The notes under the pieces were generated by a model. It was not told the DNA's origin, searched no databases, and saw only the letters and a list, made by a program, of their open reading frames with translations. This document shows positions 1,218-21,433 of a DNA stretch of 64,000 nucleotides, piece after piece (the first letter of the stretch is position 1; each line of letters starts with the position of its first letter). The position numbers were made by a program, and so were the translations under genes. The DNA is from Spirochaetales bacterium (lineage in GTDB: Bacteria > Spirochaetota > Spirochaetia > JABEVK01). The stretch covers positions 96,001 to 160,000 of the forward strand of contig JBAXAI010000002.1 in NCBI GenBank assembly GCA_037142615.1, written 5' to 3'.

Positions 1218-2684
1218 ATGAAGTCTGAAGAAAATCTGGAAGACCGGATCGCCACCCTTGAGCGGGAACTCAACCGGATCCACAAGCTCTATGAAAAGGC
1301 AGTGCTGTACCAAAGTGCGGACCCAGAAATCTCGCTTTCCCAAGCGCGGAAGTCTGCCGAAGCGGTATGTAAGAACATCTACATCCGCGAGGGCCTGGAA
1401 GAGGACGGCAAGCCGGTCGCCAAGATGATGCTCAACGACCTGATCAGCATCTTGACTCGCTCCGGAATTTTGCCGGCCCACATCTCTGTGTCGCTCGGGA
1501 CGATTCAGGCTTTCGGGAACTTCGGAACCCATGACCAAGGCGACGAAAGCGAGTTCATTACCGTTGAGTACATCAAGCCGTGTCTGCAGGCGCTTAATAC
1601 CGTTGTCCACTGGTACTTCATGCGGTATTCGCAGGAGGGCCTGCTTTATGGGCGAGACCGGTCACCGGCAGCGCAGGAAGTTCTCGTGGGTAACGAGCGT
1701 CTCTACTTCGATTCCTTTGAAATGGCCTTTGCCGATGGCGTTGTCGACGGTCAGGAACGCGTGCTGCTCGACCGCCGGAGAGAGGATCTCGGAATCTCCT
1801 TGGAGCGCGTTCGCACGATCGAGAACATCGTCAAGTCACGCCACCAAGCGACCCCTGGCGAGCAGCCCCATCCCCTCGATCCAGACGACGAAGACTCGAT
1901 CGGCGAGGGTGACAACGCTCTCGAACTTGACGGCTGGCTCTCGATTGTCAGCAAGCGTACAGTCCCACTCCCGGCCGGCATCTTCCAAATGGGCTCGGAA
2001 AACGGAGCGGAAAATGAAAAGCCGACTCACGAAGTTGCCCTTTCCGGGTTTTCCATGGCCAAGTGCCCCGTGACGCAGCGGGACTTCGAGAAGATCTGCG
2101 GCATCAACCCCAGCAACTTCGCCGGAGATCCCAACCGCCCGGTAGAGAGTGTGTCGTGGTTCGATGCCATTAAGTTCTGCAACCGCTTGAGCAAAGCCGA
2201 CAAACTTGTGCCAGTCTACTCGATTGCCGAGGAAGGAATTGTCGCGAACTTCCGCAACAACGGCTATCGTTTGCCGACCGAAGCCGAGTGGGAGTACGCT
2301 TGCCGTGCCGGCAGCCCGGCCGACTTCTATTGGGGTGACAACGAAAAGGAAGCTGGCCTGCACGCCTGGTGCGATTCCAACAGTGACGACACCACCCACA
2401 CCGTGGGAACCAAGCGCAAGAACGCTTTTGGCCTTTTCGACATGGTCGGGAATGTGTGGGAGTGGACGAACGACTTCTTCAATCAGGAGTATTACGGCAC
2501 AAGCGATCGAACCGACCCGCTGGGTCCAGAGTTCGGCGAGTACAGAGTTCTCCGTGGAGGCTGTTGGTTCAACGGCCAGAACCGGCTTAGGTCTTCGTGC
2601 CGCCTCAAGCGGTTACCCAACCTTGTCGACGATGTCACCGGTTTTCGGTTTGTCGCCCGTCATCCTGGGCTGTGGTCCGAATGA
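1218..2684 (+). CDS. DUF4145-like N-terminal domain + short helical (TerB-like) motif + C-terminal FGE-sulfatase (formylglycine-generating enzyme family) domain
   Basis: ATG 1218 follows GGAGG at 1201. N-terminal SLSQARKSAEAVCK..IQAFGNFGTH. C-terminal FQMGS, PVESVSWFDA, YRLPTEAEWEYACRAG, NAFGLFDMVGNVWEW and RVLRGG motifs. Confidence 0.8.
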   Translation: MKSEENLEDRIATLERELNRIHKLYEKAVLYQSADPEISLSQARKSAEAVCKNIYIREGLEEDGKPVAKMMLNDLISILTRSGILPAHISVSLGTIQAFGNFGTHDQGDESEFITVEYIKPCLQALNTVVHWYFMRYSQEGLLYGRDRSPAAQEVLVGNERLYFDSFEMAFADGVVDGQERVLLDRRREDLGISLERVRTIENIVKSRHQATPGEQPHPLDPDDEDSIGEGDNALELDGWLSIVSKRTVPLPAGIFQMGSENGAENEKPTHEVALSGFSMAKCPVTQRDFEKICGINPSNFAGDPNRPVESVSWFDAIKFCNRLSKADKLVPVYSIAEEGIVANFRNNGYRLPTEAEWEYACRAGSPADFYWGDNEKEAGLHAWCDSNSDDTTHTVGTKRKNAFGLFDMVGNVWEWTNDFFNQEYYGTSDRTDPLGPEFGEYRVLRGGCWFNGQNRLRSSCRLKRLPNLVDDVTGFRFVARHPGLWSE

Positions 2685-3235
2685 ACCTTGAAGTAGTTTC
2701 TGCAACCCCGGCTGACCTCAAGTCCATTATGAAGCTGGAGCACGAAGGGTTTGTAGCTGGAATCCGGGAGAATGCTGAGGTCTTTCTTCGCCGCGTTGAG
2801 GTCTTTCCGAACGGCTTCTTGCTGCTCAAACGCGATGATGCGGTGGTCGGGTACCTTTCAAGCGAGATTTGGCCCTATCGCGATCCTTTCGAGCCGGACT
2901 GGTTCTTGCTCGGTCACGATATTTCGACGCGCCACAAGGCGGACGGCGACGAACTCTACGTCTCTTCCATGACCATTTTGCCCGAGTTCAGGGGGCAGGG
3001 CATGGGTTCGGACTTGTTCCGCACCGCTCTGAGACAGCTCGAAGAGCGGTACAACGGCCTGCATTCCTGCATTCTCCTCGTGAACGAACGCTGGGACCAT
3101 GCCCGCCGAATCTACGACTCGCTGGAGTTTCGCCGCATCGGGACGTTGAAGCAATTCTTCCAGCCTCAGGGTTTGCCTGCGTCTGACGGATGGATTTGCC
3201 GAAGGCCGCTTCCCCTCACAAACGTCAGCACCTGA
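2681..3235 (+). CDS. GNAT family N-acetyltransferase
   Basis: ATGA overlap with the upstream stop. Acetyl-CoA motif ILPEFRGQGMGSDL and C-terminal ARRIYDSLEF. Confidence 0.85.
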   Translation: MNLEVVSATPADLKSIMKLEHEGFVAGIRENAEVFLRRVEVFPNGFLLLKRDDAVVGYLSSEIWPYRDPFEPDWFLLGHDISTRHKADGDELYVSSMTILPEFRGQGMGSDLFRTALRQLEERYNGLHSCILLVNERWDHARRIYDSLEFRRIGTLKQFFQPQGLPASDGWICRRPLPLTNVST

Positions 3236-4431
3236 TCGGTCAACAGAGGGCTGAACAGCACTTTGCCGAACAAGTCCGGTGGGCAACGGGAGCGCAGAAC
3301 GTCGGGCACCACGAGCACGGCACCCTCGCTGACCGGAGGTCGTGACATTCGCTCGACAACCTCGGCCATGGCAGCCTTCTGACGAACGCCGCGGGCCCCA
3401 GCAAGATAGCCTTCGACCAAGGCCTCGCGCGTTGCGGGTTCCACGTCGTCCTTCCCAAAAAGGGCCAGGGCCAACGCAGACTCACCGCTTTGACACAGGT
3501 ACTCGCAGAACAACCGGTCGTCCGAAGCCAGGCTTGTCAGCGTTGCTGTCGATTCGGACAACTCGGACTCGCCATCGCCTTTGCCCGAAAGCCACACCAA
3601 ACGTTCGGCGAGCGTCTCAAGGCGCACGGGGGCAACTGGGTTGCCAGCTGACTCCTTCAGAAAGCGCTGCACTTCGGGCCACGGCATCGCCGACAAGAGT
3701 TGACGCAGCAGCGAAAACGACCCCCGGGACAACAACTGCGCAAGGTCCCCGGACGCCTGGGTTGCTGGACTCCCGACAATTTCGGTAACCAAAGGCTCCC
3801 ACACCGGATTCTCGAGACTCTGAAGGCCCTTGAGGGCGGCGTATTGGTCAGAAAAAAGCAGGCTGGCCAAAACTTCGGCCGTCGGTGCCAAATACCCCGT
3901 CTCGAGACCTTCACCGCATGCGACCCTAAAGTGCCTGACGACGGCGCTCTCGAAATAGTCGGTGCACAGGCGGTCTACCAGTGGCTCCAGTTGCTCGAGA
4001 ATCTGGCGGTTCTGGGGCGAAGCCCAGTCGGTGTAGTACAGGACCACGGCGTTCTGGGCCAAAAGTCCAGGGCGCAGCGCCTCCAGAAAAGCTTCCGCGA
4101 AGGCCGACTCCCACAGAAACTCGATCTGAGTTTTCACCAACTCCGGCACCTCGGGGAGTTGCTGCTGGATATCGATGGACGCCAACAAGTCCTTCCATTG
4201 GTCGGACCCCTTGATTCGCGACCGGAGGAGTCTGAGGTCCAAACCGTCGGTCAAGTGAAACGTCGGAACCGTCTGCTTTCGGGAACGCAACAAGGCCAAG
4301 ATTTCCTCGCTGGCGTCCAAGTGGCAGAACTGAATCGCTTTGGTGCGAAAAAGGGCCGGAAAACGGTCGGACAGGTCAGCGATGCGACGCGCCGCCTCGA
4401 TTCCCAGCGAAAGCACGAACACGTGGCTCAT
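3166..4431 (-). CDS. Hypothetical protein with a degenerate tubulin/FtsZ-like N-terminus (last gene of the vWA-tubulin operon)
   Basis: Start at 4431 overlaps the upstream stop (ATGA). The N-terminus MSHVFVLSLGIEAARRI..IQFCHLDASEE parallels PTIFIGLGGSGSKTI..FIFSALDTDVEE of the 12139-15663 protein. Confidence 0.6.
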   Translation of the reverse strand: MSHVFVLSLGIEAARRIADLSDRFPALFRTKAIQFCHLDASEEILALLRSRKQTVPTFHLTDGLDLRLLRSRIKGSDQWKDLLASIDIQQQLPEVPELVKTQIEFLWESAFAEAFLEALRPGLLAQNAVVLYYTDWASPQNRQILEQLEPLVDRLCTDYFESAVVRHFRVACGEGLETGYLAPTAEVLASLLFSDQYAALKGLQSLENPVWEPLVTEIVGSPATQASGDLAQLLSRGSFSLLRQLLSAMPWPEVQRFLKESAGNPVAPVRLETLAERLVWLSGKGDGESELSESTATLTSLASDDRLFCEYLCQSGESALALALFGKDDVEPATREALVEGYLAGARGVRQKAAMAEVVERMSRPPVSEGAVLVVPDVLRSRCPPDLFGKVLFSPLLTDQVLTFVRGSGLRQIHPSDAGKP

Positions 4432-5930
4432 GCCCGGGGTTCCTTGGTCCGCTGGATAACCAACTTGAAGTCTTCCATCTTCCAGATTTCCAACTGAGGA
4501 CGAATCCACGCCTGGATGTTCTTCGGTTCGAGGCTGTCGAGGACCCTGGACTGCTCGCCTTCGCCGGTTCCGGAAACGTAGGTGATCAGCCGCCCCAGCA
4601 CAGGATATTGCCGTCGGATCTCGTGAAGGTAGGCCCGTGAGTCGTCTTTGAAATACCGGGTCAAGACTCGCGAAGCCTGACTCAGCACCAGGGCCCGACC
4701 GGCAAGGGCTAACAGAAACTCGGGCTCAAGCGATGGTTCGTCGTAGTTGAAGGCTGGAAGGTCGGCCAGGATCGAGTACTTGTTTGGTCGCTTCCAGGCG
4801 GCCAAACAAACGGTTCCGATGAGAACCGTCGCGGCTTCGTACAGAAACCGGGCAGGGGTGTCGAGCTTGAAGCTCAAGTGCAGTTGATGGCTTTTGTCGA
4901 CTTGGCGGTAGCTGACGTACGAAGCGTACAGGTCAACAAACAGCCGGTTGCCGGTGTTGTCGACAGGTCTTTCCGACTCTCCCTCGCTCTTCTGGATCAT
5001 CTTGCGGAAGAAACTCAGCAGCGCGGCCCACAGCGCACGCAGCAGTCGCCAGCGATGCTTCGGTGGTTCTTGAGGTGATACAGCGATCTCAAAGTGACTA
5101 TCCTCGGTTAGTGTTCGCCAAAGCTCGTTTTCTTGGATGAAGCCCGACTTACCGGCCATCACGTCCAGCAGTTTCTTAAGCTCATCGCCAGATTTCTGAG
5201 GCGCGACTTTGGCCGGCGGTGCCTCGGGCGCTGGCTTGGGCGCGGGAGTTTCTGCCGTGGGTGCGCTTCCGTCGGCTGGCGAGGTCGCTGGCGCCGGGGG
5301 AATAACCGTTTCGGCGGCCTGAAAGCGTCGCTTGAGTCCTTTGGGAAGAATGGCATCCCACTCGTCAACGAGCGACTGCCTCAACGAGTCGAGCGAAAAG
5401 GAGCTCTTGGTCAGTTGGTCCCGAAACTTGTCAAAGCTGTTCTGATAGCAGTCGGCACAGATGCTGCGGCCGACCACATTCCTTGCCAGTTCGTTGGCGC
5501 GGAACTGGTTCATCAAACTCGCGCCGTGAAGCGCCTGCACATCGTTTCTTCCCGCGACAACAGGCACCCCGCAGTACCCGCAAGTCCCCGCTTCGAACGA
5601 GAGTTCACGGATCTCGTGGAGGTGGTAAGAGCGGCGCACAGCCTCGATAACAGGGTCCCTGCGGCCTGTCAGGGCAGAACTTCCGGCAACCTTGGTGGCC
5701 CGCAGAAAAGAATCCTTAAATGCCTGCGCGGGAAGAACATCGTAGACGGTCTTGCGCCCTTCCTCCGCGCTCATGTCCTCAAAACAGAGCAGACAAGGGT
5801 TTCCTTCCCGGGAAAGGCACGAAAAGCAAATGTTCCCCTGACCATGCATGTAGCGTGAAGCGCTGCCTACCTGTTTTCCGCACTGGATGCACCGCCCGCC
5901 GGCCAGGTTCTTGTTCGTCTTGACCTTCAT
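4428..5930 (-). CDS. Multi-CxxC zinc-finger protein with a Pro/Ala-rich linker and an uncharacterised C-terminal domain
   Basis: Start at 5930 overlaps the upstream stop (ATGA). Five CxxC pairs (CIQC, CFSC, CLLC, CGYC, CADC) and a PAPATSPADG..PAPKPAPEAPP linker. Confidence 0.7.
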   Translation of the reverse strand: MKVKTNKNLAGGRCIQCGKQVGSASRYMHGQGNICFSCLSREGNPCLLCFEDMSAEEGRKTVYDVLPAQAFKDSFLRATKVAGSSALTGRRDPVIEAVRRSYHLHEIRELSFEAGTCGYCGVPVVAGRNDVQALHGASLMNQFRANELARNVVGRSICADCYQNSFDKFRDQLTKSSFSLDSLRQSLVDEWDAILPKGLKRRFQAAETVIPPAPATSPADGSAPTAETPAPKPAPEAPPAKVAPQKSGDELKKLLDVMAGKSGFIQENELWRTLTEDSHFEIAVSPQEPPKHRWRLLRALWAALLSFFRKMIQKSEGESERPVDNTGNRLFVDLYASYVSYRQVDKSHQLHLSFKLDTPARFLYEAATVLIGTVCLAAWKRPNKYSILADLPAFNYDEPSLEPEFLLALAGRALVLSQASRVLTRYFKDDSRAYLHEIRRQYPVLGRLITYVSGTGEGEQSRVLDSLEPKNIQAWIRPQLEIWKMEDFKLVIQRTKEPRA

Positions 5931-8668
5931 TCTTCGCCCACCTCGCTTTCCAGCGGGACCGCGTCGACAAAAGCCTTCAAAACGCTCGCCAGACCCGCCA
6001 GATTGCCAGCATCGAGAGCCGCCGGGTCCTCTGTCCTCCAGTGAGGCAGAATGGGGAGCCAAGCGCCTTCCTGCGGTGGCGTGCTGAGCTCGGCCGCCAA
6101 CGAAGTGAAGAAGCGCCGCACCGGCGAAACGGGGTCGTCGTGGTTCAGTTGGGCCTTGAAGAACTCCATCACGGCAAGGGCCAGTTCCGGTCGCGCATCG
6201 CAGGCAGGGACGAGCCGGAGGGCCGTCAAGCTGGCGCCTTCCAGCACGACCGAGGCGACCACCTCATGGTCGTACTGCCGCCACGCAAACTGGCAAAACA
6301 GGTGAAACGCGTGCTCGACCACGAAGTTGAGGTTGCTTCCGGCCGCGACATCAAGGGGCGCCTTGAACTTGAACCTCCGCTCGGCCATTTCGGGGGCCGA
6401 ACTCACGAGCGGCACTTGGTAGCCCGGCAGCGGCTGTCGCCCCACGTGGTCACCACTGAGACAACTGATCACCGGAGCGAGCGTGATGGCTTCGGCGCCG
6501 TTCGCTTCGGGGACCCAGGCCCGGGCAACCCTCAGATGTGGCGGGAATCCCCCGGTAGGAAGCTCGGCTTCCGGTGCTCGGGTGGCGGCCTGCTTCAGCA
6601 TGTCGACAAGCTCCAGGTTCTTGAGAAGAACGTCCAGAACCGCCCGTGAAACGATGGTGTCATCGACAACAAACCAGAGGATTCTCTCGTTGTCGGCGTC
6701 GGCCCCCGCAGCCAGGTCGAGCCGATGGAGCAGGGTCGGAATATCGCCCATTCCGACGGAACTTTGGCGTCGGGAGAAGCCGCTCCGGCGTTTTGAGTCG
6801 CCGCCATCGATCAACCAGTCGTGGGTGAGCTCGCGGCTTTGGATGTAGTCCAACGAGTAGAGGCGACTGAGCGATGGAAAGAAGGACGAGGCCGACCAGT
6901 AGCGCCCTCCGTCCCAAAACACCGGCCCTGCGCCAAAGTTCTGCACCGTCGCCATCACAAACGGCGGCGCCTCGCTTCGGGCAACTTCTTCGATCGCGTC
7001 GGGCCGATAGCCCGTGCTTTCGGGGGTTTCGGCTGGAGCCGACGGGCTCATCAGCACGATCGAAGTGTGGAGGGGTTGCGGCGGTTGGAGCGAGAAGCAG
7101 TCTCGGGGCCCAAGACCCGCGGTGACTTGCTTTGCCAGCGACAGCGACGACTCCAGCGACCCGAAGCGCACCTGCGATACCCTCAAGGCACCCTCAGCCC
7201 CCCGCAAAATTGCCAAATGGTCGAGCTTGTCTAGCACCTGCCGCGCCGTTGCGAGCCCTTGCGAGGTCATCGAGTCGAGGTCACCTACGTAGGCGATCGA
7301 CAGGTCTCTGGCCAGGTCACCAAAGGAGTAGTAATTCTCGCTGCCGTCTTCTTCCGGAAGCACTAGCTTCTTTGAGACATCAAAGTACAGGATATCGGGA
7401 ATCTCGAACTTGGCTTGGAACTTGCCGTACTCCGACAGGTCCCGCAGAACCACGGTTCGTTTCAGCCATTCCAGATTGTCAAAGACCGAGGCAAAGCGCT
7501 CGCGAAGGTCCGCCGCCGCCGCCTTGTCGTGCAGAAGGAACAGGGCCTTCTTGCCGTCCAAGACGCCCGACAGGGCGCTGAAAAGGCAGGTGGTCCGCAT
7601 CCCGCTGCCGATGGCACCGCGGATCACCAGGTTCCGTCGCTTCTCGATCGCTTCGATGATCGAGATTTGTTCCTGGCGGAACTCGCGTATCCCCATCACG
7701 CTCAGCAGATCCTTCTTGCGGGTAGCGCCCACGATCCAAGGGTTGCCCGCCTCCTGATAGAGCTTTTGCGACGTGGCAGAGAACTGCCGACGAAGGTTCC
7801 AGGGCTGGGACACTTCCTTCAGGTTGAGTTTGTAAGGGATTTGACCACTGGCAAACCTCTCCTTGAGGTAGCGCGAAATCAGGGCCATGTCGGGGACAAC
7901 CTCAGTCGTCAGATCCTTGTTTTCGATCAGTTCCTCTTTGGGAGTTTTGGGAAAAGCTCTGGAAAGGAACCAAAAGGTCGTCCCTAACGGGATCCAGAAG
8001 AAGTCAACGACCCGAAAGTCGGGAAAGACGGTCGTTTGGCCCTGGAGGAGCGTCGTGAGCCAGTCAATGTCTCCACCCAGGAGTTTGAAGAGGGGTCCCC
8101 AGCCATTGGCAAGCACCCACGCGCCTTCGGCCGCCATCGACAGCATTCCGACAATGCAAAGGGTTCGCATCCACTTCCCGTACAGGGGATACACGAACTT
8201 ATGCTTGTGCCGTTTGATGCCAAAAAAGTACTTGATCACCGCCAGATAGCCTTCGTTGGTCCGGAAGTTCAAGGCTTCCTGGATCGGTCGAAGCACCAGA
8301 AACGCAATCGAGGTGACGAAACTCCAAAAGGCGGCAAAAAGCAAGGCAACAGCCGAGATGGGCAGGAGATTCATCAGGAACTTCTCGAGACTAATTCGGT
8401 TGCCCGGCGAAACGAAGTCGGCAAGCTGACCGTTGCCTGCCTGGCCTTTTTCGATGAGGGACCCGAGACCCAGGAACTGGCCTGCTGAATCGACCACGGA
8501 ACTGGTCACCGACGCGAAGAGCGCGCGGAAGAACGAGTGCTGGCCGGTGAGCAGACCAAACAGGGCCTCGGACAGCACCGCAAGAACGGCCAGAACGAAC
8601 ACGGTCAGGCCGAGGATACCGTAAAAGGAATAGTCCGTGTAACTGGCGAACGGTTTCGATTCTTTCAT
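5927..8668 (-). CDS. Polytopic membrane protein fused to a degenerate (probably inactive) SF2/DEAD-box-like helicase domain
   Basis: Start at 8668 (TGATG overlap). Four to five hydrophobic helices in the first ~240 aa. Then FRQEQISIIEAI (Q motif), GAIGSGMRTT (motif I without Lys), KALFLLHDKAAAAD (Ia), PDILYFDV (Ib) and AYVGDLDS (altered motif II). Confidence 0.65.
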   Translation of the reverse strand: MKESKPFASYTDYSFYGILGLTVFVLAVLAVLSEALFGLLTGQHSFFRALFASVTSSVVDSAGQFLGLGSLIEKGQAGNGQLADFVSPGNRISLEKFLMNLLPISAVALLFAAFWSFVTSIAFLVLRPIQEALNFRTNEGYLAVIKYFFGIKRHKHKFVYPLYGKWMRTLCIVGMLSMAAEGAWVLANGWGPLFKLLGGDIDWLTTLLQGQTTVFPDFRVVDFFWIPLGTTFWFLSRAFPKTPKEELIENKDLTTEVVPDMALISRYLKERFASGQIPYKLNLKEVSQPWNLRRQFSATSQKLYQEAGNPWIVGATRKKDLLSVMGIREFRQEQISIIEAIEKRRNLVIRGAIGSGMRTTCLFSALSGVLDGKKALFLLHDKAAAADLRERFASVFDNLEWLKRTVVLRDLSEYGKFQAKFEIPDILYFDVSKKLVLPEEDGSENYYSFGDLARDLSIAYVGDLDSMTSQGLATARQVLDKLDHLAILRGAEGALRVSQVRFGSLESSLSLAKQVTAGLGPRDCFSLQPPQPLHTSIVLMSPSAPAETPESTGYRPDAIEEVARSEAPPFVMATVQNFGAGPVFWDGGRYWSASSFFPSLSRLYSLDYIQSRELTHDWLIDGGDSKRRSGFSRRQSSVGMGDIPTLLHRLDLAAGADADNERILWFVVDDTIVSRAVLDVLLKNLELVDMLKQAATRAPEAELPTGGFPPHLRVARAWVPEANGAEAITLAPVISCLSGDHVGRQPLPGYQVPLVSSAPEMAERRFKFKAPLDVAAGSNLNFVVEHAFHLFCQFAWRQYDHEVVASVVLEGASLTALRLVPACDARPELALAVMEFFKAQLNHDDPVSPVRRFFTSLAAELSTPPQEGAWLPILPHWRTEDPAALDAGNLAGLASVLKAFVDAVPLESEVGEE

Positions 8669-11600
8669 CAGTCGCGTTCCCACTGACCCAAAGCCTCTTT
8701 CATCGTCGGGTAGTCGAGGTGAAGGCACAGGTTGATAAAGTTCATTCCCAGAAAATCCTCATCTTCGCGAAGCAGACTGGTTCGAAGCGAGCTCTTCATG
8801 CCCCGGTCTGCCAAGGTCTTGACCATGATCCCGAAGAAGGTCTGGTTGGTTTCCACCAACGTGTACTGCGGAAGCTTGCGAACCTGAAACATCACTTCCC
8901 GCCGTGAGGCATGGGTTTCGACGAAGGCTCCCACCCGCTCTCGGATCGAAGGCAACTCGACGACGGCCGATAGGAGCTCACGCGTCTGGTCATCGCTCAG
9001 CAGATCGTAGGACTCCCCTGACCTGAGCTTTTCGAGCAACTGCTCGGTCGTCTTTCCCTTGTTGAAGATTTCGCTGGTCCGTATGAACACCCCCTGGAAG
9101 GTCCTCACCTGAAGGTCCTTGGGAATGATGCTGTTGGCCAAGAGCAGGGCCTCACGGCTCCTTCCTTCTTTGCCGGCTTGTTCTTCCTTGATCAGTGCCT
9201 TGCGGAGGAACGAGGTCTCGCCCGAAAGTTTGAGTCTGGTGTCTTCGAGGCACTTTGTCACCTCGGTCTTGAAACCCGAGATGCGGCCATCCATCCCTTT
9301 GAGCCAAGATTCCCACTCGGCAACCTGTTGCTTCAACCGATTGGCGGAAGCCACGTTTCCAATCGCCAACCTCAGTTCGAGAGCTTCGTACTGGGCGCGG
9401 TAGCGTTCGGTCAGGAACTCCGAGATTTTGGACTTCAGCTTCACGTAGCGGGTTCGAACTCCCGAGCGCAAAAGCAGAAAGATTCCCCAGACGATGGCGG
9501 CCATGCCGATCCCCGCTGCCAGCAGGTTGAGGACTGGGGAAGGGACTCCTGTGGTCTGCGCCATTTTCGTGAGCCAGCTCGAAATAAACTGAGCGGCGTG
9601 GAGCCCATCGCCAAGTTCCGGCGACACCAGCAGAAAGGTCGACAGGGCCGCACCGATGACCGTGAAGATCATGAAGCGGGATTTGGGAAGCCTCTCGATC
9701 GCTTCCACGAAACCTTCTGCCTGAGTTACCGTCTCGCGCTGCAGCCTGCTCGAAAGCGGTGTGCGTTCGGCTTCGGTGCCCGGGGCCAAGGCGTCTGCCC
9801 GAAGTTTGGGCGTGAAGTGCGAACCCAGGATTTGACCCAATTCCTGCAACATGTACGGTACCAGACGCCAGTTGGCGAACGGCTGTGAGTGGACTTCTTT
9901 GCTGGTCAGGTCCGGCTGAAGCTGCTCTTGGATCGCCCTCTCGAGGATTTGAGACAAGCGCTTCTGCTTGTCCTGATTGCGAAGGATAAGGCTGGGGTTG
10001 AGCCGGGAATCGTGGACCTCTTTCATCGCCTCGACGCCTTCATCGACCACCCGCAGAGTATGGCGGGTCGTCTCAAAATTGAACTCCTTCAGACTCCTGA
10101 AGAAGCGCACAGGTCGGAGCGGACCGGCCATTTCCCGGAAACTCAACACCGTCTTGTCCGGGAACCTCGACTTGACAGGTCTGCCATCGCGGGCCGTCAA
10201 GGGGACTTCGGGCGCTTTGCAGTCCTCGAGCAGAAGGATCGGCTCGACGCCCAGTGAGTCGTTGGAAAGTCGATCGGCAAGGTTCACGTGAAGCACATGG
10301 CCAAAGGCGCTGTAAATGTGGTCGATCAGCAGGGTGGAGGGCACTTCGGCACTGGAGCCGGAGTTGTCCTTCAGGAGTTCCCTGTCGAGCTCGGCGAGCT
10401 GGAACTTGTCCAAGGCTTCCCGTGCGATCAGGTTGGCTCGGCCCACGCCGCTGGGCTCCACCGCGATCTTGTCTTTGACCAGTTCGCCGGGTGGGTCGGC
10501 AAGGTACTCGAGTGCCTTGGAGGCCTGGTCGAGTTCCACGTAACGCTTCAGGTCAAGCAGTTGGGCTTCCAGCGAAAAGATCCCCGCGCACGCGTAAGAG
10601 GCGGTCGTCCGGTCAAGGTCGTCGAGCAGCCGGCCCAGGTACTCGGCGAAACTCGTACCTTTGGAAGGCTTGGCCGGGTCAACACACAGCCGCTCGATTG
10701 CCCGGTTGTCGGTGGCAAAATGGACGTTGTCGCGTTGAAAGACCAAGCGAAAGAGGCTGCGCAGGTTCGCGTCATCGCGGCCGTCGCCAGACTCGAGGGT
10801 TACGGCCAAGAGTCGCATCAGCGATCGGGCCGCGTGCATCACATCTTCGGGTTCAAGCGTGCTGCCACGGTTACTTTCTTTGTCGACCAGGAAAACTCTG
10901 GTCAGACGCGACTCGAAGGCGATCACCTTGCGATGGGCCTGTGCGTCGTCCTGTTTTCGCCGTTTGTCGCCATCGTTTCGTCTGCTGTAGGCGTCGAAGC
11001 GCTCCCAAAGATACTTCAGGCCCCAGCGGCGGCGAAGGCAATGTTTGAGGTAGGTCGGAATACTGAACAGCGTGGAGCGGTCTTCCCCGACAATGCTGAC
11101 CACGACGACACTGAAGTCCCACTTTTCCAGATAGTCCACCACCCACAGCAGCCTCTGATTGAGCTCCGACGTGTTTTCGAGCAGGATGACGGCATTCAGT
11201 TCCGTTTGGTCGATGGCCCGGTCCAGATCCTGCTCTGACCTGGCACCGGTGATCCAGCCTCGGGCTTCTTCGAGCACAAGCTTGTCGCACCGACGCGCGT
11301 AGACCTCGGAAAACGGCGACTCGGACGCGGCAGTAAGCTCAGGACTCTCTTTCAGCGCGTCACAAATCTGCAACGCCGTCGACTTATCAAACCGGAAGCC
11401 GACGTCGGCTACCTTGGCCCTGTCCTCCAGCTTCAGTACTGCCTGCAATATGGCGTCGTTGCCCTCATAAGCGGCAAGATCCCGCAGCGTTTGCGGTGAC
11501 ACATCATCGAAGGCCTTCTGGGTCAAGGCACCGACCCAAGACGACTCGGGAAGCAGCGCCCAAAGAGCCTCAAACGTGGCAAGGCTCCCTTGTTTGCAGG

Positions 11601-12120
11601 ACCAGTGCAGAGCGCAAAACCCATCGTGATCGGGCCTCAGGACCAGCTCGGCGAGAGCGCTGAGCGCGGGCTCGGCCAAGGCCTTGAGGTTGGCCTTGAG
11701 CCACGTTGGCAACCACGGACTGCCGCAGGCTGCTGCCCAATGCAGGAGGCTCCAGCCTTCACTGTCGTCGAGCTCGAAACGAGGCCCCGACCCGAGGTAG
11801 TCCGAGAGGGCTTGCCAGTCCAGGCCCGCTTTGTTCTTTCTCGGGAAGGTCCTGTCGAGCAGTTCGTTGGCGCCAGCTTGGTCAGTACACCTCAAAAGCA
11901 GTGCTTGCGCCGAAGGCGGCACTTGCTGGCCGGGGTGCCCTTCACGGGGTTCCTGCGGTTGCTCGTCCAGTTGACAACGTCGCTGGACCTGATACGGGAC
12001 ACGCGAGGGGTCCGGGTCAAAAAGGTGAGGCGAGCCTTCCAGGGTGTCAGCTGCCTTCGCCCCAAGACTGACGACAAGAGTTTTGTACCGGACCACAAGA
12101 TTTGTCTGGCGCTCTGTCAC
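8668..12120 (-). CDS. Ankyrin-repeat-containing degenerate tubulin-like protein with coiled coil and two C-proximal TM helices
   Basis: GTG start with AGGAG upstream. Ankyrin motifs DSEGWSLLHWAAACGS, DHDGFCALHWSCKQGS and QTLRDLAAYEGNDAIL. Segments resemble the neighbouring tubulin-like protein. TMs FMIFTVIGAALSTFLLV and LLAAGIGMAAIVWGIFLLL. Confidence 0.7.
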   Translation of the reverse strand: MTERQTNLVVRYKTLVVSLGAKAADTLEGSPHLFDPDPSRVPYQVQRRCQLDEQPQEPREGHPGQQVPPSAQALLLRCTDQAGANELLDRTFPRKNKAGLDWQALSDYLGSGPRFELDDSEGWSLLHWAAACGSPWLPTWLKANLKALAEPALSALAELVLRPDHDGFCALHWSCKQGSLATFEALWALLPESSWVGALTQKAFDDVSPQTLRDLAAYEGNDAILQAVLKLEDRAKVADVGFRFDKSTALQICDALKESPELTAASESPFSEVYARRCDKLVLEEARGWITGARSEQDLDRAIDQTELNAVILLENTSELNQRLLWVVDYLEKWDFSVVVVSIVGEDRSTLFSIPTYLKHCLRRRWGLKYLWERFDAYSRRNDGDKRRKQDDAQAHRKVIAFESRLTRVFLVDKESNRGSTLEPEDVMHAARSLMRLLAVTLESGDGRDDANLRSLFRLVFQRDNVHFATDNRAIERLCVDPAKPSKGTSFAEYLGRLLDDLDRTTASYACAGIFSLEAQLLDLKRYVELDQASKALEYLADPPGELVKDKIAVEPSGVGRANLIAREALDKFQLAELDRELLKDNSGSSAEVPSTLLIDHIYSAFGHVLHVNLADRLSNDSLGVEPILLLEDCKAPEVPLTARDGRPVKSRFPDKTVLSFREMAGPLRPVRFFRSLKEFNFETTRHTLRVVDEGVEAMKEVHDSRLNPSLILRNQDKQKRLSQILERAIQEQLQPDLTSKEVHSQPFANWRLVPYMLQELGQILGSHFTPKLRADALAPGTEAERTPLSSRLQRETVTQAEGFVEAIERLPKSRFMIFTVIGAALSTFLLVSPELGDGLHAAQFISSWLTKMAQTTGVPSPVLNLLAAGIGMAAIVWGIFLLLRSGVRTRYVKLKSKISEFLTERYRAQYEALELRLAIGNVASANRLKQQVAEWESWLKGMDGRISGFKTEVTKCLEDTRLKLSGETSFLRKALIKEEQAGKEGRSREALLLANSIIPKDLQVRTFQGVFIRTSEIFNKGKTTEQLLEKLRSGESYDLLSDDQTRELLSAVVELPSIRERVGAFVETHASRREVMFQVRKLPQYTLVETNQTFFGIMVKTLADRGMKSSLRTSLLREDEDFLGMNFINLCLHLDYPTMKEALGQWERD

Positions 12121-12138
12121 GCGGTTCTAGCTCCTAGT

Positions 12139-15100
12139 TCAACTGACGACCGGCCAAAAGAACTCCTCGAAGGGAGCGCAAGCGGCACGCAGGCCCTCTG
12201 CCCAGGCCGCCTCGTCGTCGCAGCGTTTGGCAAAGGCAAGCGTGCTGTTATACAACTGCTCCACAAACACACTCGTCTTGTTCTTCCGTGTCGAAGCCTT
12301 GTTCAGGTAGGTGGCCAGAACGCTCAGGTAACCGGTTAGTTCCTTCTGCCACGCCACCTCGCGCAATTGAACGTTTTCGACCAAGCGGAGCTCCAGCCGT
12401 TTTTGGCATACGGCCCCGTCAGCCAAGCCGAAGTTCACGCGGAAGAGCTTGAACACCGAGAGCAAGTTGACTGGATCCTTGTCTTCCAGCTTGAGCGGCG
12501 TCGATGCGAACCGTTTGGAGTAGGTGCTCAGGTCGTCTTCCAGGCTGTCGGGTTTCCAATCGCCCGACATCCAGGCAGAGGATTTGTGGGTACCCTTTTC
12601 TTCGGTCACGTGCAACAGCGGCGAGGTCGAGTCGTCCTTGGAATCCCGTTCGCGTCCCAAGGCCAGCCAAACGAGGAAAAAGGCCTTGATCTGCTGGTTG
12701 AAGTACGCGTCCAGGTCTTCGAGCTCGCGGCTCCAATCCTGATGGATGTGCGTGGTGATGGCCGAATCGCGCAGCTCCTGGTAGTAGGCGGCCTTCATTG
12801 AACCATTGCCGGTAAACAGGTTTTCGACCTTGCCCAGGTCGAACGCCAGGTACGACTGGTAGAACAGCACCCGGTTGTCGAACGACTCTTCGAGTTTGTC
12901 GGTTTCGGTTTCGGGGAAGATTCCCGGTGCCGACTTCAGGTACTCCTGCAACACTTTGCCGAGTTCCTGCTGCACCTTGGACGTGCAGGCGTAGCTCTGG
13001 ATCTTGTTGACCCGGTTGTCGCCCTTGCTGATCCGAATAAACGGCGCTGACAAACCGAACGCGGCCTTGGCCTTGTCCTTTTTGTATTCCTCAATGTCGC
13101 GTTCGGTGCTTTCCGGATGAAGCATCTTGGCCTCTTCTTCCAAGGCGGCCCCGATCGACAGGTCCAGCGAGTGGTGCTTTTCGATTTTTTGGAACACGGC
13201 CTCGACCATGCCCTCGCGCACTTCACCGACGACCTTTTTGGAGGCTCGGTTTGACTCGTCTTTCATGCGTTTGAGCACATCGCCGGAATCCAAGGCCTGC
13301 TTTTCGAAATCCTCCAGCTTTTCGGTCAGGGAGTTCCAGTTCTTCATGACCCCATCGGTCAGCGAATTGTAGAACTCGGCCAACACCTGGTTCGAGTCCA
13401 TCTTGAAGATCTGCTGCATGAACTTCTGGATGGCCTCCTCGCTCGCCAAGACCGTGATCTTGGAGTTGTCGGGGTAGATTTTGTCTTCGAACTTGCCCGA
13501 GTGTTTGACGGCTTCGAGACCCGCCGCGACCTGACGTTTGAGGTCGCTCATCTTGTCGAACAGGCCATGGATGCAGTTGAGCAAACCCTGAGGCTTTTCC
13601 GGATCGATGCGGTCCAGAAACTGGCCGACGAAGGTCTCGAGAATCGCGAAGAAATGGAGTCCCTGCGACCAGCCGTTGTTCTTGACAACGAGACTGCCGT
13701 CGGCTTGTCTGGTGGTCTCGAACCGGGTGTAGCTCGAAAGCCTGTAGTTCGAAAAGGCGGCATCGCCGGGCAACAAGAGGAACTGCTGGAACAGTTCTTT
13801 CATCTGGTTGAGGTTGGTTTTTTTGGAAAGTGCCAGCACCGGCTGCTCGATGAGCGAGTTAAGGCTTTCAAAGCGTTTCTGAACCTTCCCGAGTTCCTCT
13901 TCGAAGGAGTTCAGTCCCCTGGAGGAGTCTTCCTTTTTCCCTGCGCCGGAACCTCCGGTGACGGAGTTCGCCAACAAGACCCTGTAAATGCTCAGGGTTT
14001 TGTAAAGCGTCGAAAGCAGGTACCGGATTTCAAACAGATTGCGTTTGCTGCCGTCGCCGCCGGGAGCCTTGAGCAGGTTTCCCAAACGGTAGGCTTGCCC
14101 CTGAACCCCCGAGTCCTGAAACACGTCTTCGACGATGCCACGAAGGTTCTCTTTCTGGAAGCGCTCGGCACGTTTGCGAAGTCGCTTCATGTCGGAAAGC
14201 ACTGCGTAGACGCCGCTTTTGGTTCCCATCTGGGCTTCGATCGCCTGCGACCTCAGGGTTCCGTCCTTTTCAATAAACTGAGATTGGGAAAGGACTTGTT
14301 CCACATACTCCTTTTGAATCCGCTTCACGACCTCCGTCCAGTAGCTGTCGTAAGTGGTCGGATTGTTCGGGGTGTCGGGGCTACCGTCGATGGCGATTCG
14401 GATTCCCACAAAAGGCACGGGGAATTGATTGGCCAAGGCCTGGACCTGAGTGAGGAAGGCTTCTTCGCGGCGAGGTTTCGATACCGGTTTGCCTTCCGCT
14501 TTTTCGCGTTCATACTGGGCGTTCGCGACCAGATAACCGGCGTCGGCCTTGAGCCAGTAGCCTTCTTCGCCAAAGGTTTTGTTGAGGTACTCGTACGACA
14601 GGCGCCAGGCGATGTCCTTGCGCGGGAAGATCAGGGCTGAGAACCCGAAGGAACTGTAGCGCCGGCTTTTCTCGCCACCTTTCACGGCTTTCAGCAAGCT
14701 GTTGATGAAATTGTCTTCCGCGCTGCCGGCCTTGTCGGCGATCGGCGAAAAAACCTGCATGTAGAGGCAGTGCGCAATTTCGCGGTAGTAGTGCTCGTAG
14801 CCCGGCCCGGGAGTTTCAAACGGGATGCCGGAGTCCCGGGTCTTGTCGAACAGCACACACCAGTCAAAGGGACGTTCCGACAGGTAGCGCTCGGCGTTCT
14901 CGACGATGTTCGCCTGAAAGTCGGGTTGCGCGAGGTAGTTGAACGGCGGAATGTAGTCGACATACTCGCGCGACGAATCGGCGTAACCGATCGCTGCTTC
15001 GAGTTCCTTGAGGCTGGCGTAACCGTTGGCCCGCAGCCGGTTGTAAAGCGAAGGCTCTTGCCCGCCCTGACAGAACACTTCGGGCATCATCAGTACGGCC

Positions 15101-15663
15101 CGCATATCGACCTTTCGGCCCTTAAGGAGTTCGCGCACCTGATAGCCGATCATGTTGAACAGCGCGCTGCCGGTGCCACCGGCGGTCGAGGCGATGACGT
15201 AGATGCGCAACATGTTGTCGGAGGTGTCCACGTTGGCGGTGATGCCCTGAACCTTGGTCAGAATCGCGTTGATTTTTTCCTTGAGGTTGTTGTTTTCCAT
15301 CTGGTAGTGGTAGCCCAACCGCGACGTGATGCGGATCTGGCCCGCACCTTTGTCGAGGGGTTTGGTGTTGAGCATCCCCGTGTCGGCCGGCCACCACGAG
15401 AAGAAGTCGGTGTCGTTGGCGTTGCGCTTGTCTTCGATGTAGCGCGCGACGTTGACGTTTTCGGAGGTTTTGATCTGGTTCTCGTCGGGGATTCCGCTGG
15501 CGCGCAATTCCTCGACGTCGGTGTCGAGGGCCGAAAAGATGAACTGGTGGTCGACCAGCGGGGTGTACTCCGGCGTGGCCAGGCAGAGTTCGCGGAGGAA
15601 CCGGATTGTCTTGCTTCCGCTGCCCCCGAGTCCGATGAAAATGGTGGGAAAGTACTTCTTCAT
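12139..15663 (-). CDS. Tubulin/FtsZ-like GTPase (Tubulin_2/FtsZl-type) with a long alpha-helical C-terminus, 1174 aa
   Basis: IFIGLGGSGSK, ALDTD, GAGQIR, ASTAGGTGSA (tubulin signature) and ANGYASLKEL motifs. RBS AGGAG 7 nt before the ATG. Confidence 0.9.
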   Translation of the reverse strand: MKKYFPTIFIGLGGSGSKTIRFLRELCLATPEYTPLVDHQFIFSALDTDVEELRASGIPDENQIKTSENVNVARYIEDKRNANDTDFFSWWPADTGMLNTKPLDKGAGQIRITSRLGYHYQMENNNLKEKINAILTKVQGITANVDTSDNMLRIYVIASTAGGTGSALFNMIGYQVRELLKGRKVDMRAVLMMPEVFCQGGQEPSLYNRLRANGYASLKELEAAIGYADSSREYVDYIPPFNYLAQPDFQANIVENAERYLSERPFDWCVLFDKTRDSGIPFETPGPGYEHYYREIAHCLYMQVFSPIADKAGSAEDNFINSLLKAVKGGEKSRRYSSFGFSALIFPRKDIAWRLSYEYLNKTFGEEGYWLKADAGYLVANAQYEREKAEGKPVSKPRREEAFLTQVQALANQFPVPFVGIRIAIDGSPDTPNNPTTYDSYWTEVVKRIQKEYVEQVLSQSQFIEKDGTLRSQAIEAQMGTKSGVYAVLSDMKRLRKRAERFQKENLRGIVEDVFQDSGVQGQAYRLGNLLKAPGGDGSKRNLFEIRYLLSTLYKTLSIYRVLLANSVTGGSGAGKKEDSSRGLNSFEEELGKVQKRFESLNSLIEQPVLALSKKTNLNQMKELFQQFLLLPGDAAFSNYRLSSYTRFETTRQADGSLVVKNNGWSQGLHFFAILETFVGQFLDRIDPEKPQGLLNCIHGLFDKMSDLKRQVAAGLEAVKHSGKFEDKIYPDNSKITVLASEEAIQKFMQQIFKMDSNQVLAEFYNSLTDGVMKNWNSLTEKLEDFEKQALDSGDVLKRMKDESNRASKKVVGEVREGMVEAVFQKIEKHHSLDLSIGAALEEEAKMLHPESTERDIEEYKKDKAKAAFGLSAPFIRISKGDNRVNKIQSYACTSKVQQELGKVLQEYLKSAPGIFPETETDKLEESFDNRVLFYQSYLAFDLGKVENLFTGNGSMKAAYYQELRDSAITTHIHQDWSRELEDLDAYFNQQIKAFFLVWLALGRERDSKDDSTSPLLHVTEEKGTHKSSAWMSGDWKPDSLEDDLSTYSKRFASTPLKLEDKDPVNLLSVFKLFRVNFGLADGAVCQKRLELRLVENVQLREVAWQKELTGYLSVLATYLNKASTRKNKTSVFVEQLYNSTLAFAKRCDDEAAWAEGLRAACAPFEEFFWPVVS

Positions 15664-15672
15664 GGTCTTCTC

Positions 15673-18072
15673 CTAATACGGCGCCCTGGCCGAGTCTTGT
15701 GTGGAATCGTAGTCGTAGTTGTCTTGGAAGGCCTTGGCACCCGGGCTCCCCCGGTACGCCAAGCCGTACTCGAAGGATTGTTGCATGTCGGAGAACTGGT
15801 CGGTCCGGTAGCTGCTGCGGGGCGGCAAGGCCAGGGAGCGAACCATAGGTTTCGCGTTTCCTTCCGAGTTGTCCGGATGGTAGGTCCTCTGAATCGATCC
15901 GCGGTTCTCGATGTTCAAGCGGAACCTCCCCCGGTCGAACACGCTGAAGGCCGGGCTGAACCAACGGTTGGCCATGGCCACGCCGGAATCGATGGCCTGC
16001 GGGCGCAACAGCCTCAAGGAGGGGGGAAAGTGTTTGCCGGCAACGAGCTTGAAGAGAACCATGAGCGCCAGGAAGGCGCAGACTCCCTCGAAAACGACAA
16101 AAAGCAGCAGATTCAACAGGTCGGCGAACGATGGCCCCACCTCGACCTTGAGAGGCAGGTCGAACACCTTGTCGCCGTGCAGCAGGATCGGGACCGACAA
16201 ATCCCCACCGCTGGAGGCCTTTTGACCGACGCCCAGTCGTGAGGCTTGCAGTTGCAGTTGGTCGGTATCGGCGGTACCACCAACACTCAGATACTTGCCT
16301 GTGTGGCCGATGCCGCTCAGTTCTTCCAGTTTCGGGGTGAAGCGCAACCTCCCCGTGTCGAGCGTGCTGTCGGCCGTGGGCTTGAACACGACGTTTCTGG
16401 CGGTGCCGGTACCCATGCGAAGCGGTGGCGGCGTGCCGACCAGTTCGGCCTTGTTGGTCTCAGAAAAACTGAAGGTGTAGATTTCGCTGCGGATCTGGGT
16501 GACCTTGTTCTGGAACCGTACGAAGAACTGGTAGCTCCCCGGCGAGTCAAAGACCCCGCTGCCATGGTAGACCAAGGCGCCTTCCTCGGTCGGGGTGAGC
16601 GGATAGGTCACTTCGGGTCGCCCTGCCAGGCCCACCACCAGGTCGAAGGCGGCTTCCTTGGTGTAGAAGTCGGGGTTGGCGTACGTGCTCCCATCGGAGA
16701 TGTTGACCAGCCGTACCTTGTCGACGGTGATGTTTCGCTTTTTGAAGTCGAAGTTGAAGCGCGCGTTGATGGCAAGGTCGAGCACTTGCATGAACGACAC
16801 CTGATCGGGATTGCGGTTGACGCGTAGCGACCACTTGCCGGTGCCATAGCGATCGGGACGGCCGACCTTGAACGCCCGGTAGCGCTGGTCGCCGCCCTGG
16901 TAGTTGCCTGGCTGCGCGAACTCGGCAGCCGTGAACTCCTGGCCGTCGGGCTTGACCAGGGTCAGGGTCAGGTTCTGGATGTCGTGGTCGTAAACAATGA
17001 AGTTGACCTCTTTGGCGACGGGCAAGAAGGGGTCGAAGACGAACGAACCGCTGGCGTCGTTGGCGTCCTGCGACTGGGGCACTTCGCGGGTGTCCCAAAT
17101 CTTGGCCAGAATCTGCTTGAACACCGCCGGCAACTCATCGGCCTTGGAAACCTGATACGGTTCTTCCCAGGTGATGCGCCGCATTTGCTCCAGGTCGGCC
17201 TTGTCGCCGAGCCCGATCGAAAAGGCCGAGATCTCCTTTTGATGCAGAACGTCGCGCAAGGTTTCGGGAATGGGCTTGTTCTTGGGGTCAGCTTCCATGT
17301 CTGAAAGCAGGATCAGGTATTTTCCGTAACTGCCATCGACCCCGTCGAGCAACTGGGCCGATGCGAGAACGCCCGCCGTGATGTCGGTACCACCGTTGTA
17401 CGGCGCCTCGAGGGCCTTCTTGACGAGCTCCTTGGTCTTGGCCTGGTTGGACTCAATCTTGGTCAGGGGGAGTACCTTCAGGACCTTGCCGTTGAAAAAA
17501 ACCGCACCGACCTGCTGGCCTTCGGACACCAGGTCGGTGAGCAAGTGCGAGGCCAGGATGGCCAACCTATCCGGGTCGTTGCCAATCGTCCAGGCCAGGT
17601 CGGTGTTGTTCGCTTTGCCATTGTCGGGGTTGGGACCCATCGAGCCAGAAACGTCGATGCACACGACGATGGCCTGCTTTTGCTTTTTCAGCGTCCCGTC
17701 GGATTCCACCTGATCGGGTGCGCTCTTGGAGGCTGCGGTTTGGAAAGGGTGGGTTGCCAAGGTTGACGTATTGGTGAGCTTGACGGGTACCTCAAGGGGA
17801 GCCGGGTCGACATCGTAGGATTTGATAAAATGATCGTACGAGCCGGGGCCGAACCAAAAGAGCAACCAGAGGAAGAGGGCAAGGGCAAGCAACCCCACCA
17901 GGCGGTAGCGCGACAACGCCAGATACTTGCCAAGAATAAGGTGGTCAAACAGCACCAGCACCAGCAACCCGGCGAGGGCGATCGGGACTCCGACCTGCCC
18001 TTCCAGTTGGGTGGACAACTTATTGAATGATTCTGTCAGGAAAGCGGTATCCAAGTCTCCTCCAGCCCCCAC
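15673..18072 (-). CDS. Membrane-anchored von Willebrand factor A (vWA) domain protein
   Basis: MIDAS DVSGS, GGTDI and ILLSD. Two N-terminal TMs and one C-proximal TM flank the vWA and beta-rich domains. The start may instead be TTG at 18054 (GGAGG just upstream). Confidence 0.85.
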   Translation of the reverse strand: MGAGGDLDTAFLTESFNKLSTQLEGQVGVPIALAGLLVLVLFDHLILGKYLALSRYRLVGLLALALFLWLLFWFGPGSYDHFIKSYDVDPAPLEVPVKLTNTSTLATHPFQTAASKSAPDQVESDGTLKKQKQAIVVCIDVSGSMGPNPDNGKANNTDLAWTIGNDPDRLAILASHLLTDLVSEGQQVGAVFFNGKVLKVLPLTKIESNQAKTKELVKKALEAPYNGGTDITAGVLASAQLLDGVDGSYGKYLILLSDMEADPKNKPIPETLRDVLHQKEISAFSIGLGDKADLEQMRRITWEEPYQVSKADELPAVFKQILAKIWDTREVPQSQDANDASGSFVFDPFLPVAKEVNFIVYDHDIQNLTLTLVKPDGQEFTAAEFAQPGNYQGGDQRYRAFKVGRPDRYGTGKWSLRVNRNPDQVSFMQVLDLAINARFNFDFKKRNITVDKVRLVNISDGSTYANPDFYTKEAAFDLVVGLAGRPEVTYPLTPTEEGALVYHGSGVFDSPGSYQFFVRFQNKVTQIRSEIYTFSFSETNKAELVGTPPPLRMGTGTARNVVFKPTADSTLDTGRLRFTPKLEELSGIGHTGKYLSVGGTADTDQLQLQASRLGVGQKASSGGDLSVPILLHGDKVFDLPLKVEVGPSFADLLNLLLFVVFEGVCAFLALMVLFKLVAGKHFPPSLRLLRPQAIDSGVAMANRWFSPAFSVFDRGRFRLNIENRGSIQRTYHPDNSEGNAKPMVRSLALPPRSSYRTDQFSDMQQSFEYGLAYRGSPGAKAFQDNYDYDSTQDSARAPY

Positions 18073-19815: not shown

Positions 19816-19841
19816 CGCACCCGACACCTCAGGAGTCCCCC

Positions 19842-21401: not shown

Positions 21402-21433
21402 GACAGTGACGGCGACTGAGCCCAGGAGGCACC

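Follow-up and report, generated by a model that had tools for sequence, protein, structure and literature searches.

The operon

The window analysed here is a 64,000-nucleotide stretch of DNA from a Spirochaetales bacterium (GCA_037142615.1, contig JBAXAI010000002.1, positions 96,001-160,000 of the forward strand), to which all coordinates refer. Six open reading frames (ORFs) lie head to tail on its minus strand, from 18072 down to 3166 (Table 1). They combine an intact FtsZl1 protein of the tubulin superfamily (P0001, gene 2) with a vWA membrane protein (P0006, gene 1), a membrane-anchored partner whose N-terminal head is probably derived from a tubulin-type domain (P0002, gene 3), a further membrane protein (P0004, gene 4), and two soluble proteins (P0005 and P0003, genes 5 and 6). 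Stop and start codons overlap between genes 5 and 6 (ATGA at 4431), at 5930 (ATGA) and at 8668 (TGATG). The stop codon of P0006 lies 9 bases before the P0001 start at 15663 and the P0002 start at 12120 follows the P0001 stop after 18 bases, both starts being preceded by AGGAG. Because of these overlaps and short gaps, the genes at 3166-18072 are read as one tightly packed, translationally coupled six-gene operon. The initial annotation, made from the letters of the window alone, also placed the genes of P0001, P0002 and P0003 in one operon.

FtsZl1-vWA operons were described by Makarova and Koonin (2010; PMC2875224). The present operon is best read as a rare, fast-evolving version of this cassette, a rare accessory variant of a type that is known but functionally untested. 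A literature search turned up no experimental work on GTP binding, hydrolysis or polymerisation by the FtsZl1 family and no mention of a decayed FtsZl1 paralogue.

The vWA domain of P0006 (residues 135-319; Pfam VWA E 5.5e-8, VWA_2 E 1.1e-6) retains an intact DxSxS motif of the metal ion-dependent adhesion site, in the form DVSGS. Hydrophobic segments of P0006 are found at residues 29-47, 58-76 and 655-673. P0005 contains paired CxxC motifs and a proline/alanine-rich linker. It has no Pfam match and only sub-threshold matches to Csf1 zinc fingers (E 0.0036 and 0.0052).

The intact FtsZl1 protein

P0001 matches Pfam Tubulin_2 (PF13809) with E 1.2e-49 and 170 bits, compared with a cut-off of 27 bits, and its residues 8-362 cover positions 1-353 of the 356-position model. 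PF00091 is matched as well, weakly. P0001 is the sole PF13809-type match in its own genome and has 568 relatives at E<=1e-5. The tubulin-like N-domain (residues 8-362, window 14578-15642) is followed by a long non-tubulin extension, and the protein has no membrane segment. All invariant columns of a 32-sequence family alignment are kept, among them G11, G13, G14, G16, D47, T48, G106, A107, Q109 and R111 as well as G162-G165, N213, Y215 and N318. The Pfam score and the invariant residues confirm the earlier proposal that one of the three proteins is an intact tubulin-superfamily GTPase; as judged by its sequence, P0001 is an intact FtsZl1/Tubulin_2 GTPase encoded next to a vWA membrane protein. 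The strings on which that proposal relied (PTIFIGLGGSGSKTI, FSALDTD, GGTGS at residues 162-166, WCVLFDKTRDSG and RRYSSFGFSAL) are all present, and the translations of P0001, P0002 and P0003 agree with the statement that glycine-rich loops occur only in P0001.

The membrane-anchored partner

P0002 begins with a strand and an ankyrin insert, continues with a conserved core and a membrane hairpin, and ends in a coiled-coil-like stretch and a C-terminal domain (Table 1); its head lies in the cytoplasm. An exhaustive phmmer search of 1.84 billion representatives yielded one full-length relative, P0009, with 41% identity, a fragment, P0010, and one distant family, P0011/P0136, with 22-27% identity. 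A word-index homologue search with P0002 returned only the query itself, a metagenome scan with the family alignment returned a single, 100% identical contig, and a search of genome contigs for related loci with P0001 or P0009 returned none. The ankyrin assignment comes from the family: the P0002 family profile matches DARPins of the PDB with E 4.9e-21, P0009 contains Pfam Ank_2 (E 1.5e-11), P0136 contains Ank_3 and Ank, and P0002 by itself remains below the Pfam threshold (E 0.0012). In all three full-length members (P0002, P0009, P0136) the repeats come after the N-terminal strand and before the conserved core.

The initial annotation regarded P0002 as a tubulin-fold paralogue with a degenerate GTP-binding loop. 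The strings cited in its favour are present (KTLVVSLGAKAADTL, RCQLDEQ, RVFLVDKESNRG and ASYACAGIFSL). Where the family has GLGGxGS and AGGTGSG in the T1 and T4 loops, the aligned stretches of P0002 read SLGAKAAD and IVGEDRST, so that on this alignment P0002 lacks both glycine-rich nucleotide loops. Their loss fits a pseudo-GTPase, provided that the assignment of the tubulin fold is right.

The relationship was examined by hhalign with an FtsZl1 N-domain profile built from 120 relatives, with 220 random 265-residue segments of the same proteome as the null set, and by hmmsearch with the FtsZl1 N-domain hidden Markov model (HMM) against 2884 ORFs of the organism's own genome. The P0002 core (residues 296-560), used as a single sequence, aligned with the FtsZl1 profile over 154 colinear columns with P 0.0056; one of the 220 random segments scored as high, and the value has to be read in the light of the many comparisons made. 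In this alignment FSVVVVSIVGEDRSTLF falls on strand S4 and loop T4, and RVFLVDKESNRG coincides with the conserved PFD..L.D block. The homologue P0009 gave P 0.016 against the same profile, and the best local match of the full P0002 family profile puts the AGIFS motif on the RYG..G.S.L block. In a feature search of the ESM Atlas with residues 296-620, Tubulin_2 clusters were two of the top three matches, which counts as a lead only. The sequence signal of P0002 is weak, but it is colinear and lies in the expected places.

Partner genes in other FtsZl1 cassettes

The comparison set comprised 80 FtsZl1 loci from named genomes, in 30 of which a crude ORF rule captured the downstream gene. In five diverse loci that were mapped in full, a vWA-type gene 1 is followed by FtsZl1, then by a membrane gene 3 encoding 700-1190 residues and finally by a gene 4 encoding 900-1400 residues. 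Mid-protein membrane segments, as in P0002, occur in all 23 gene-3 proteins of at least 600 residues (21 from the 80 loci, together with L113 and L114). Similarity among the gene-3 families is almost below detection. Two of them, M1 and D2, were defined here from Myxococcota and proteobacterial loci of metagenome-assembled genomes (L076, L113, L114, L079-L089). The Myxococcota family M1, which consists of the three sequences of L076, L113 and L114, matches the FtsZl1 profile with an hhalign probability of 96.2% (P 2.5e-9, 204 columns) and D2 with 96.3%; M1 and D2 combined match the FtsZl1 profile with 96.0% over 291 columns. As judged by these profiles, the M1 and D2 proteins are clearly Tubulin_2 paralogues that are poor in motifs and whose loops have decayed. 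When genomes were scanned with the D2 alignment, only five loci came up, all of them already known.

P0002 resembles M1 and D2 in several respects. It is encoded directly after FtsZl1; behind its head come a mid-protein membrane hairpin and a C-terminal domain; the GGTGSG loop is lost; and the N-terminus consists of a hydrophobic strand followed by LG or IG. P0002 differs in its greater length, in its ankyrin insert, which it alone possesses, and in the strength of its link to FtsZl1: for M1 and D2 the match to the FtsZl1 profile has a probability of 96%, whereas P0002 reaches P 0.0056 at best. With the M1+D2 profile P0002 aligns only over 20 columns, N-terminus to N-terminus (P 0.024).

P0004 has three to four N-terminal membrane segments, which in the long ORF lie between residues 38 and 207, followed by a large cytoplasmic part in which GAIGSGMRTT forms a decayed P-loop-like stretch. 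By position P0004 corresponds to the gene-4 protein of 900-1400 residues found elsewhere. Residues 348-456 of P0004 weakly match residues 306-411 of the gene-4 family G4a (hhalign P 0.0014), which supports the present operon being the same cassette as the others. Gene 4 of other cassettes (L079:15184-18402, L085:15552-18305, L076:11514-15356) shows MZB, the MrfA-type zinc-binding domain (E 6e-6 and 1.8e-5), or a weak DEAD match (E 0.0019). Because of these traces, the large fourth gene may encode a decayed SF2 helicase-like protein. P0004 was also considered as a further tubulin copy and rejected as such, its weak phmmer matches to Bacillus FtsZl1 being a spurious C-terminal match. Likewise unsupported was P0005 as a split-off MZB zinc domain of gene 4 (hhalign P 0.072-0.29).

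In L079, a locus of a proteobacterial metagenome-assembled genome, genes for a PP2C phosphatase, a vWA-FHA protein and a further vWA protein (L079:1326-7936) precede the cassette, so that it has three vWA genes together with phospho-signalling parts. In L013 the slot after gene 4 is occupied by a MotA/ExbB-like channel protein.

The soluble protein of gene 6

The third tubulin-fold copy was thought to be P0003, and the strings HVFVLSLGIEAARRI and FCHLDAS, counted from Met27 at 4431, do occur in it. The profile tests were at chance level. P0003 ranked 708th among the 2884 ORFs with the FtsZl1 N-domain HMM, and its hhalign match to the FtsZl1 profile (P 0.13) was equalled by 53 of the 220 random segments. 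Against the pseudo-tubulin profiles (M1 and M1+D2) it gave P 0.27-0.30. Short intact Tubulin_2-like proteins of Bacteroidota (about 500 residues) did not serve as a bridge from P0003 to Tubulin_2 either (P 0.28). Three such Bacteroidota proteins, with intact GGTGS loops, are encoded at L102:961-2436, L103:724-2229 (minus strand) and L104:955-2466; they match Pfam Tubulin_2 only below its cut-off (E 1e-5 to 1e-4), the Pfam model barely reaching this short branch of the family.

P0003 ranked 99th of 2884 with a 56-column HMM of the FtsZl1 N-terminus. A regular expression written post hoc from the annotated motif matched only P0001 and P0003 among the 2884 ORFs; it is biased because it was fitted to these two proteins. 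A word search with P0003 found no homologue apart from the query, no match was obtained in Pfam, NCBIfam or PADLOC, and sequence searches of the PDB with P0003 and P0004 gave nothing below E 0.39. In the ESM Atlas feature search, the nearest clusters were those of proteins of 450-570 residues, with 169 of 256 features in common and Tubulin_2 in 11-48% of their members, and Tubulin_2 was named in all ten best family-carrying matches. The scores were 0.85-0.87, in the range below 0.9 that counts only as a lead, and an agreement of ten in ten is also reached by a third of shuffled proteins. The Atlas model of P0003, with a predicted local distance difference test score (pLDDT) of 0.54, is nearest to Rossmann methyltransferases (template modelling score 0.22-0.30) and not to the tubulin-like clusters. 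A single-sequence AlphaFold2 model (pLDDT 37.2) begins with strand-helix-strand-helix at low confidence, and a Foldseek search of the PDB with it gave no match at E<=0.001. In the other cassettes looked at, nothing conserved that corresponds to P0003 followed gene 4. A tubulin origin of P0003 is unlikely, the ESM Atlas lead being the only result in its favour that stands beside the chance-level profile tests, and P0003 is treated here as an operon-specific protein that is not counted as a tubulin copy.

Distribution and neighbourhood

None of 40 related genomes, of which four belong to the same genus, yielded P0002. Relatives of P0001 occur in six of 400 other genomes sampled from the phylum, with about 27-31% identity. 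The closest orthologue of the FtsZl1 protein, P0016, is 84% identical and the gene-3 orthologue, P0009, only 41%, from which it follows that the gene-3 partner evolves much faster than the GTPase. P0016 and P0009 are ENA proteins, each recorded on one contig of 17,010 bp; because the lengths are equal, both genes are taken to lie on the same contig.

Directly beside the operon, the plus-strand genes at 18151-29431 (Table 1) look like a conflict-system island. Downstream of gene 4 in two Bacillaceae cassettes are Csm6-like genes (L016:19344-20840 and L012:12121-13596) of the CARF-HEPN type, with Csm6 6H and HEPN domains (E 2.3e-16 and 2.3e-14). Farther along the window, an SPFH/Band-7 protein with a double zinc ribbon is encoded at 35103-36329 (plus strand), followed at 36227-42113 (plus strand) by five ORFs with no Pfam match at E<=1e-5.

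Table 1. Genes of the operon, parts of the gene-3 protein and neighbouring genes in the window
Feature	Protein or residues	Position	Strand	Remarks
Gene 1, vWA membrane protein	P0006	15673-18072	minus	799 residues from GTG at 18072, start putative
Gene 2, intact FtsZl1/Tubulin_2 (by sequence)	P0001	12139-15663	minus	1174 residues
Gene 3, membrane-anchored partner with ankyrin insert	P0002	8668-12120	minus	1150 residues
P0002, N-terminal strand	13-20			
P0002, ankyrin insert	about 100-235	11416-11823	minus	from profile
P0002, putative decayed tubulin-like core	296-560	10441-11235	minus	
P0002, membrane hairpin	816-884	9469-9675	minus	segments 816-834 and 866-884
P0002, beyond the hairpin				coiled-coil-like stretch, then C-terminal domain
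Gene 4, membrane protein	P0004	5927-8668	minus	913 residues from ATG at 8668
Gene 5, soluble, cysteine-rich protein	P0005	4428-5930	minus	500 residues from ATG at 5930
Gene 6, soluble orphan	P0003	3166-4431	minus	421 residues from ATG at 4431 (Met27 of 447-residue ORF)
DUF4145-FGE-sulfatase (formylglycine-generating-enzyme-like) fusion		1149-2684	plus	just past the 3' end of the operon
GNAT acetyltransferase ORF		2597-3235		end overlaps the end of P0003
Caspase-domain protein with Lcl C-terminal domain		18151-19815	plus	
AAA ATPase		19731-21401	plus	
STAND-type NTPase		21434-24601	plus	N-terminal DUF4062, NACHT, TPR repeats
STAND-type NTPase		24611-29431	plus	N-terminal DUF4062, WD40 propellers, 1606 residues

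Interpretation and alternatives

We propose, tentatively and with a chance that we put somewhat short of even, that the operon is a conflict-type cassette in which an intact FtsZl1 protein is accompanied by a membrane-fixed partner, the head of gene 3 being a decayed copy. In this proposal the gene-3 head would have arisen from the GTPase domain of FtsZl1 by copying and decay, as is shown for the heads of two other gene-3 families, and P0002 would act as a nucleotide-independent partner fixed in the membrane, providing an anchor, a nucleus or a cap for assemblies of the active FtsZl1 protein. The ankyrin module might recruit a further protein, and through the vWA protein assembly might be tied to a ligand or metal signal at the membrane. 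On grounds of context, a device for conflict or defence is considered more likely than a housekeeping cytoskeleton because the cassette is very rare, its partner genes diverge fast, caspase and STAND genes are its neighbours, and Csm6-like genes follow the cassette in two other loci. Against such a role, none of the six operon proteins had a significant match in PADLOC, which gave only faint ones, to Hhe in P0004 (E 0.023) and of Csf1 type in P0005 (E 0.0052), and the flanks of other cassettes consist mostly of housekeeping genes.

The part of the proposal that concerns the P0002 head, namely that it is tubulin-derived and that the second copy is real, is probable, and more so than the proposal as a whole. 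It must be set against a considerable number of contrary observations. The homologue P0136 alone gave P 0.18 against the FtsZl1 profile, and the P0002 family profile scored lower than the single sequence (P 0.034-0.076), so that the addition of homologues weakened the signal. The hhalign probability of P0002 against tubulin profiles was 1-7%, its rank with the FtsZl1 N-domain HMM was only 50 of 2884, and the register of the T4 loop differed between two hhalign runs. Against the M1 or M1+D2 pseudo-tubulin profiles the core scored at chance (P 0.37-0.44), and full-length P0002 and FtsZl1 family profiles share only a coiled-coil stretch (P 0.063). Pairwise BLASTP among P0001, P0002 and P0003 found nothing, and Pfam contained no tubulin-family match for P0002 (E<=0.1) or for its homologues P0009 and P0136 (E<=1). 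An AlphaFold2 model of residues 1-640, computed from a four-sequence alignment, had a mean pLDDT of 39.6 and exceeded 60 in the ankyrin part only. Among the other cassettes, the gene-3 families D1, L056 and L074/L088 have no tubulin signal, so the common slot is suggestive and not proof of a common fold, and in L082 the gene after FtsZl1 encodes a VWA_2 membrane protein in a different arrangement.

In an alternative reading, only P0001 is tubulin-like, P0002 is an unrelated, lineage-specific ankyrin membrane adaptor, P0003 is an unrelated orphan, and the motifs in common are generic strand-loop-helix starts of alpha/beta proteins plus chance. This reading, which we judge rather unlikely, is favoured by the failure of both P0002 and P0003 to reach conventional significance in any match, by the fall of the P0002 signal upon addition of homologues, and by the frequency of about 1 in 100-200 with which random segments equal the core score in a study with many comparisons. 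The N-terminal motif of P0002 is not distinctive by itself either (rank 1148 of 2884 with the 56-column HMM), and several gene-3 families elsewhere are likewise devoid of a tubulin signal. It does not explain why the weak P0002 matches are colinear and fall where they would be expected (the two N-termini on each other, then the motifs of S4-T4, S6 and the last strand), nor why slot and membrane-hairpin architecture are common to families whose head is a Tubulin_2 paralogue at 96%. Moreover, two Atlas queries, which constitute one kind of evidence, arrived at Tubulin_2 clusters among 7.7 million clusters. At the other extreme, P0001, P0002 and P0003 would all have the tubulin fold, and one active GTPase would co-assemble with two pseudo-GTPases, P0003 serving as a filament cap or regulator. 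This is improbable, as is the simple statement that P0002 and P0003 are both tubulin-derived. To the evidence for the P0002 head it adds the Atlas clusters of P0003, its low-confidence strand-helix-strand-helix start, its N-terminal rank and the biased regular expression. It is opposed by the chance-level HMM and hhalign results of P0003 with the FtsZl1, short Tubulin_2-like and pseudo-tubulin profiles, by Atlas scores in the range of leads and an agreement that shuffled proteins also attain, by an Atlas model closer to methyltransferases, by the poor AlphaFold2 model without Foldseek matches, and by the lack of a P0003 counterpart in the cassettes looked at.

A still bolder version can be formulated, and we regard it as the least probable of those considered here: a three-part tubulin-type machine in which active FtsZl1 works with two pseudo-tubulins, one fixed in the membrane and recruiting through its ankyrin module, the other, P0003, short and soluble and acting as cap or regulator of the assembly. 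Joined by a vWA sensor at the surface and by a membrane protein of decayed helicase type, these three would build a polymer that is attached to the membrane, is triggered by a signal and serves as a conflict or defence device. If this were true, tubulin paralogues would share out their tasks in a bacterium as alpha, beta and gamma tubulin do. Our preference remains the decayed, membrane-fixed gene-3 copy beside the intact FtsZl1 protein. With respect to the three paralogues originally claimed, the intact FtsZl1 protein stands and P0002 is a plausible decayed copy on account of its slot, its hairpin, the M1/D2 precedent, the weak hhalign match of the core and the ESM Atlas lead, while lacking a significant match; P0003 is not counted as the third copy.

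Comparison with known systems

The operon has several features in common with the FtsZl1 operons of Makarova and Koonin (PMC2875224), as far as these are documented in the portion of the paper available to us. P0001 scores far above the Pfam cut-off, has intact T1 and T4 loops and, like the proteins described there, comprises about 1100-1200 residues with a long non-tubulin extension; the gene of a vWA membrane protein is located directly upstream, and the operon contains more genes of membrane-associated partners. In that portion the partner families A1-A2 and B1-B9 are characterised only as membrane-associated or low-complexity proteins, membrane remodelling is proposed as the function of the operons, and a decayed FtsZl1 copy is not mentioned among the partners. 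The present operon differs in that it has no OmpA, kinase or P-loop GTPase partner, and its ankyrin-bearing gene 3, cysteine-rich P0005 and P0003 have almost no public relatives. In the available part of a 2023 survey (PMC9871819), Tubulin_2 proteins are handled as a divergent outgroup.

FtsZl1 is the most divergent branch of the tubulin/FtsZ superfamily and is found in many bacterial phyla. The pairing of an active with a decayed copy is clear from the profiles of two other gene-3 families and probable in the present operon. If the gene after FtsZl1 generally encodes a decayed, membrane-anchored copy, the family would work as an active/inactive pair at the membrane and provide a prokaryotic example of subunit specialisation through loss of the nucleotide site. 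We know of no FtsZl1 protein for which a polymer has been demonstrated.

Two systems offer analogies to such a pair. FtsZ with FtsA, ZipA and SepF is analogous in that a dedicated anchor keeps a soluble GTPase polymer at the membrane, although the tethers known for FtsZ are, to our knowledge, not homologues of tubulin. Alpha/beta-tubulin and BtubA/BtubB are analogous as pairs of paralogous subunits that handle nucleotide unequally. Alpha-tubulin and BtubA retain GTP binding, whereas P0002, as its sequence is aligned here, lacks both glycine-rich loops.

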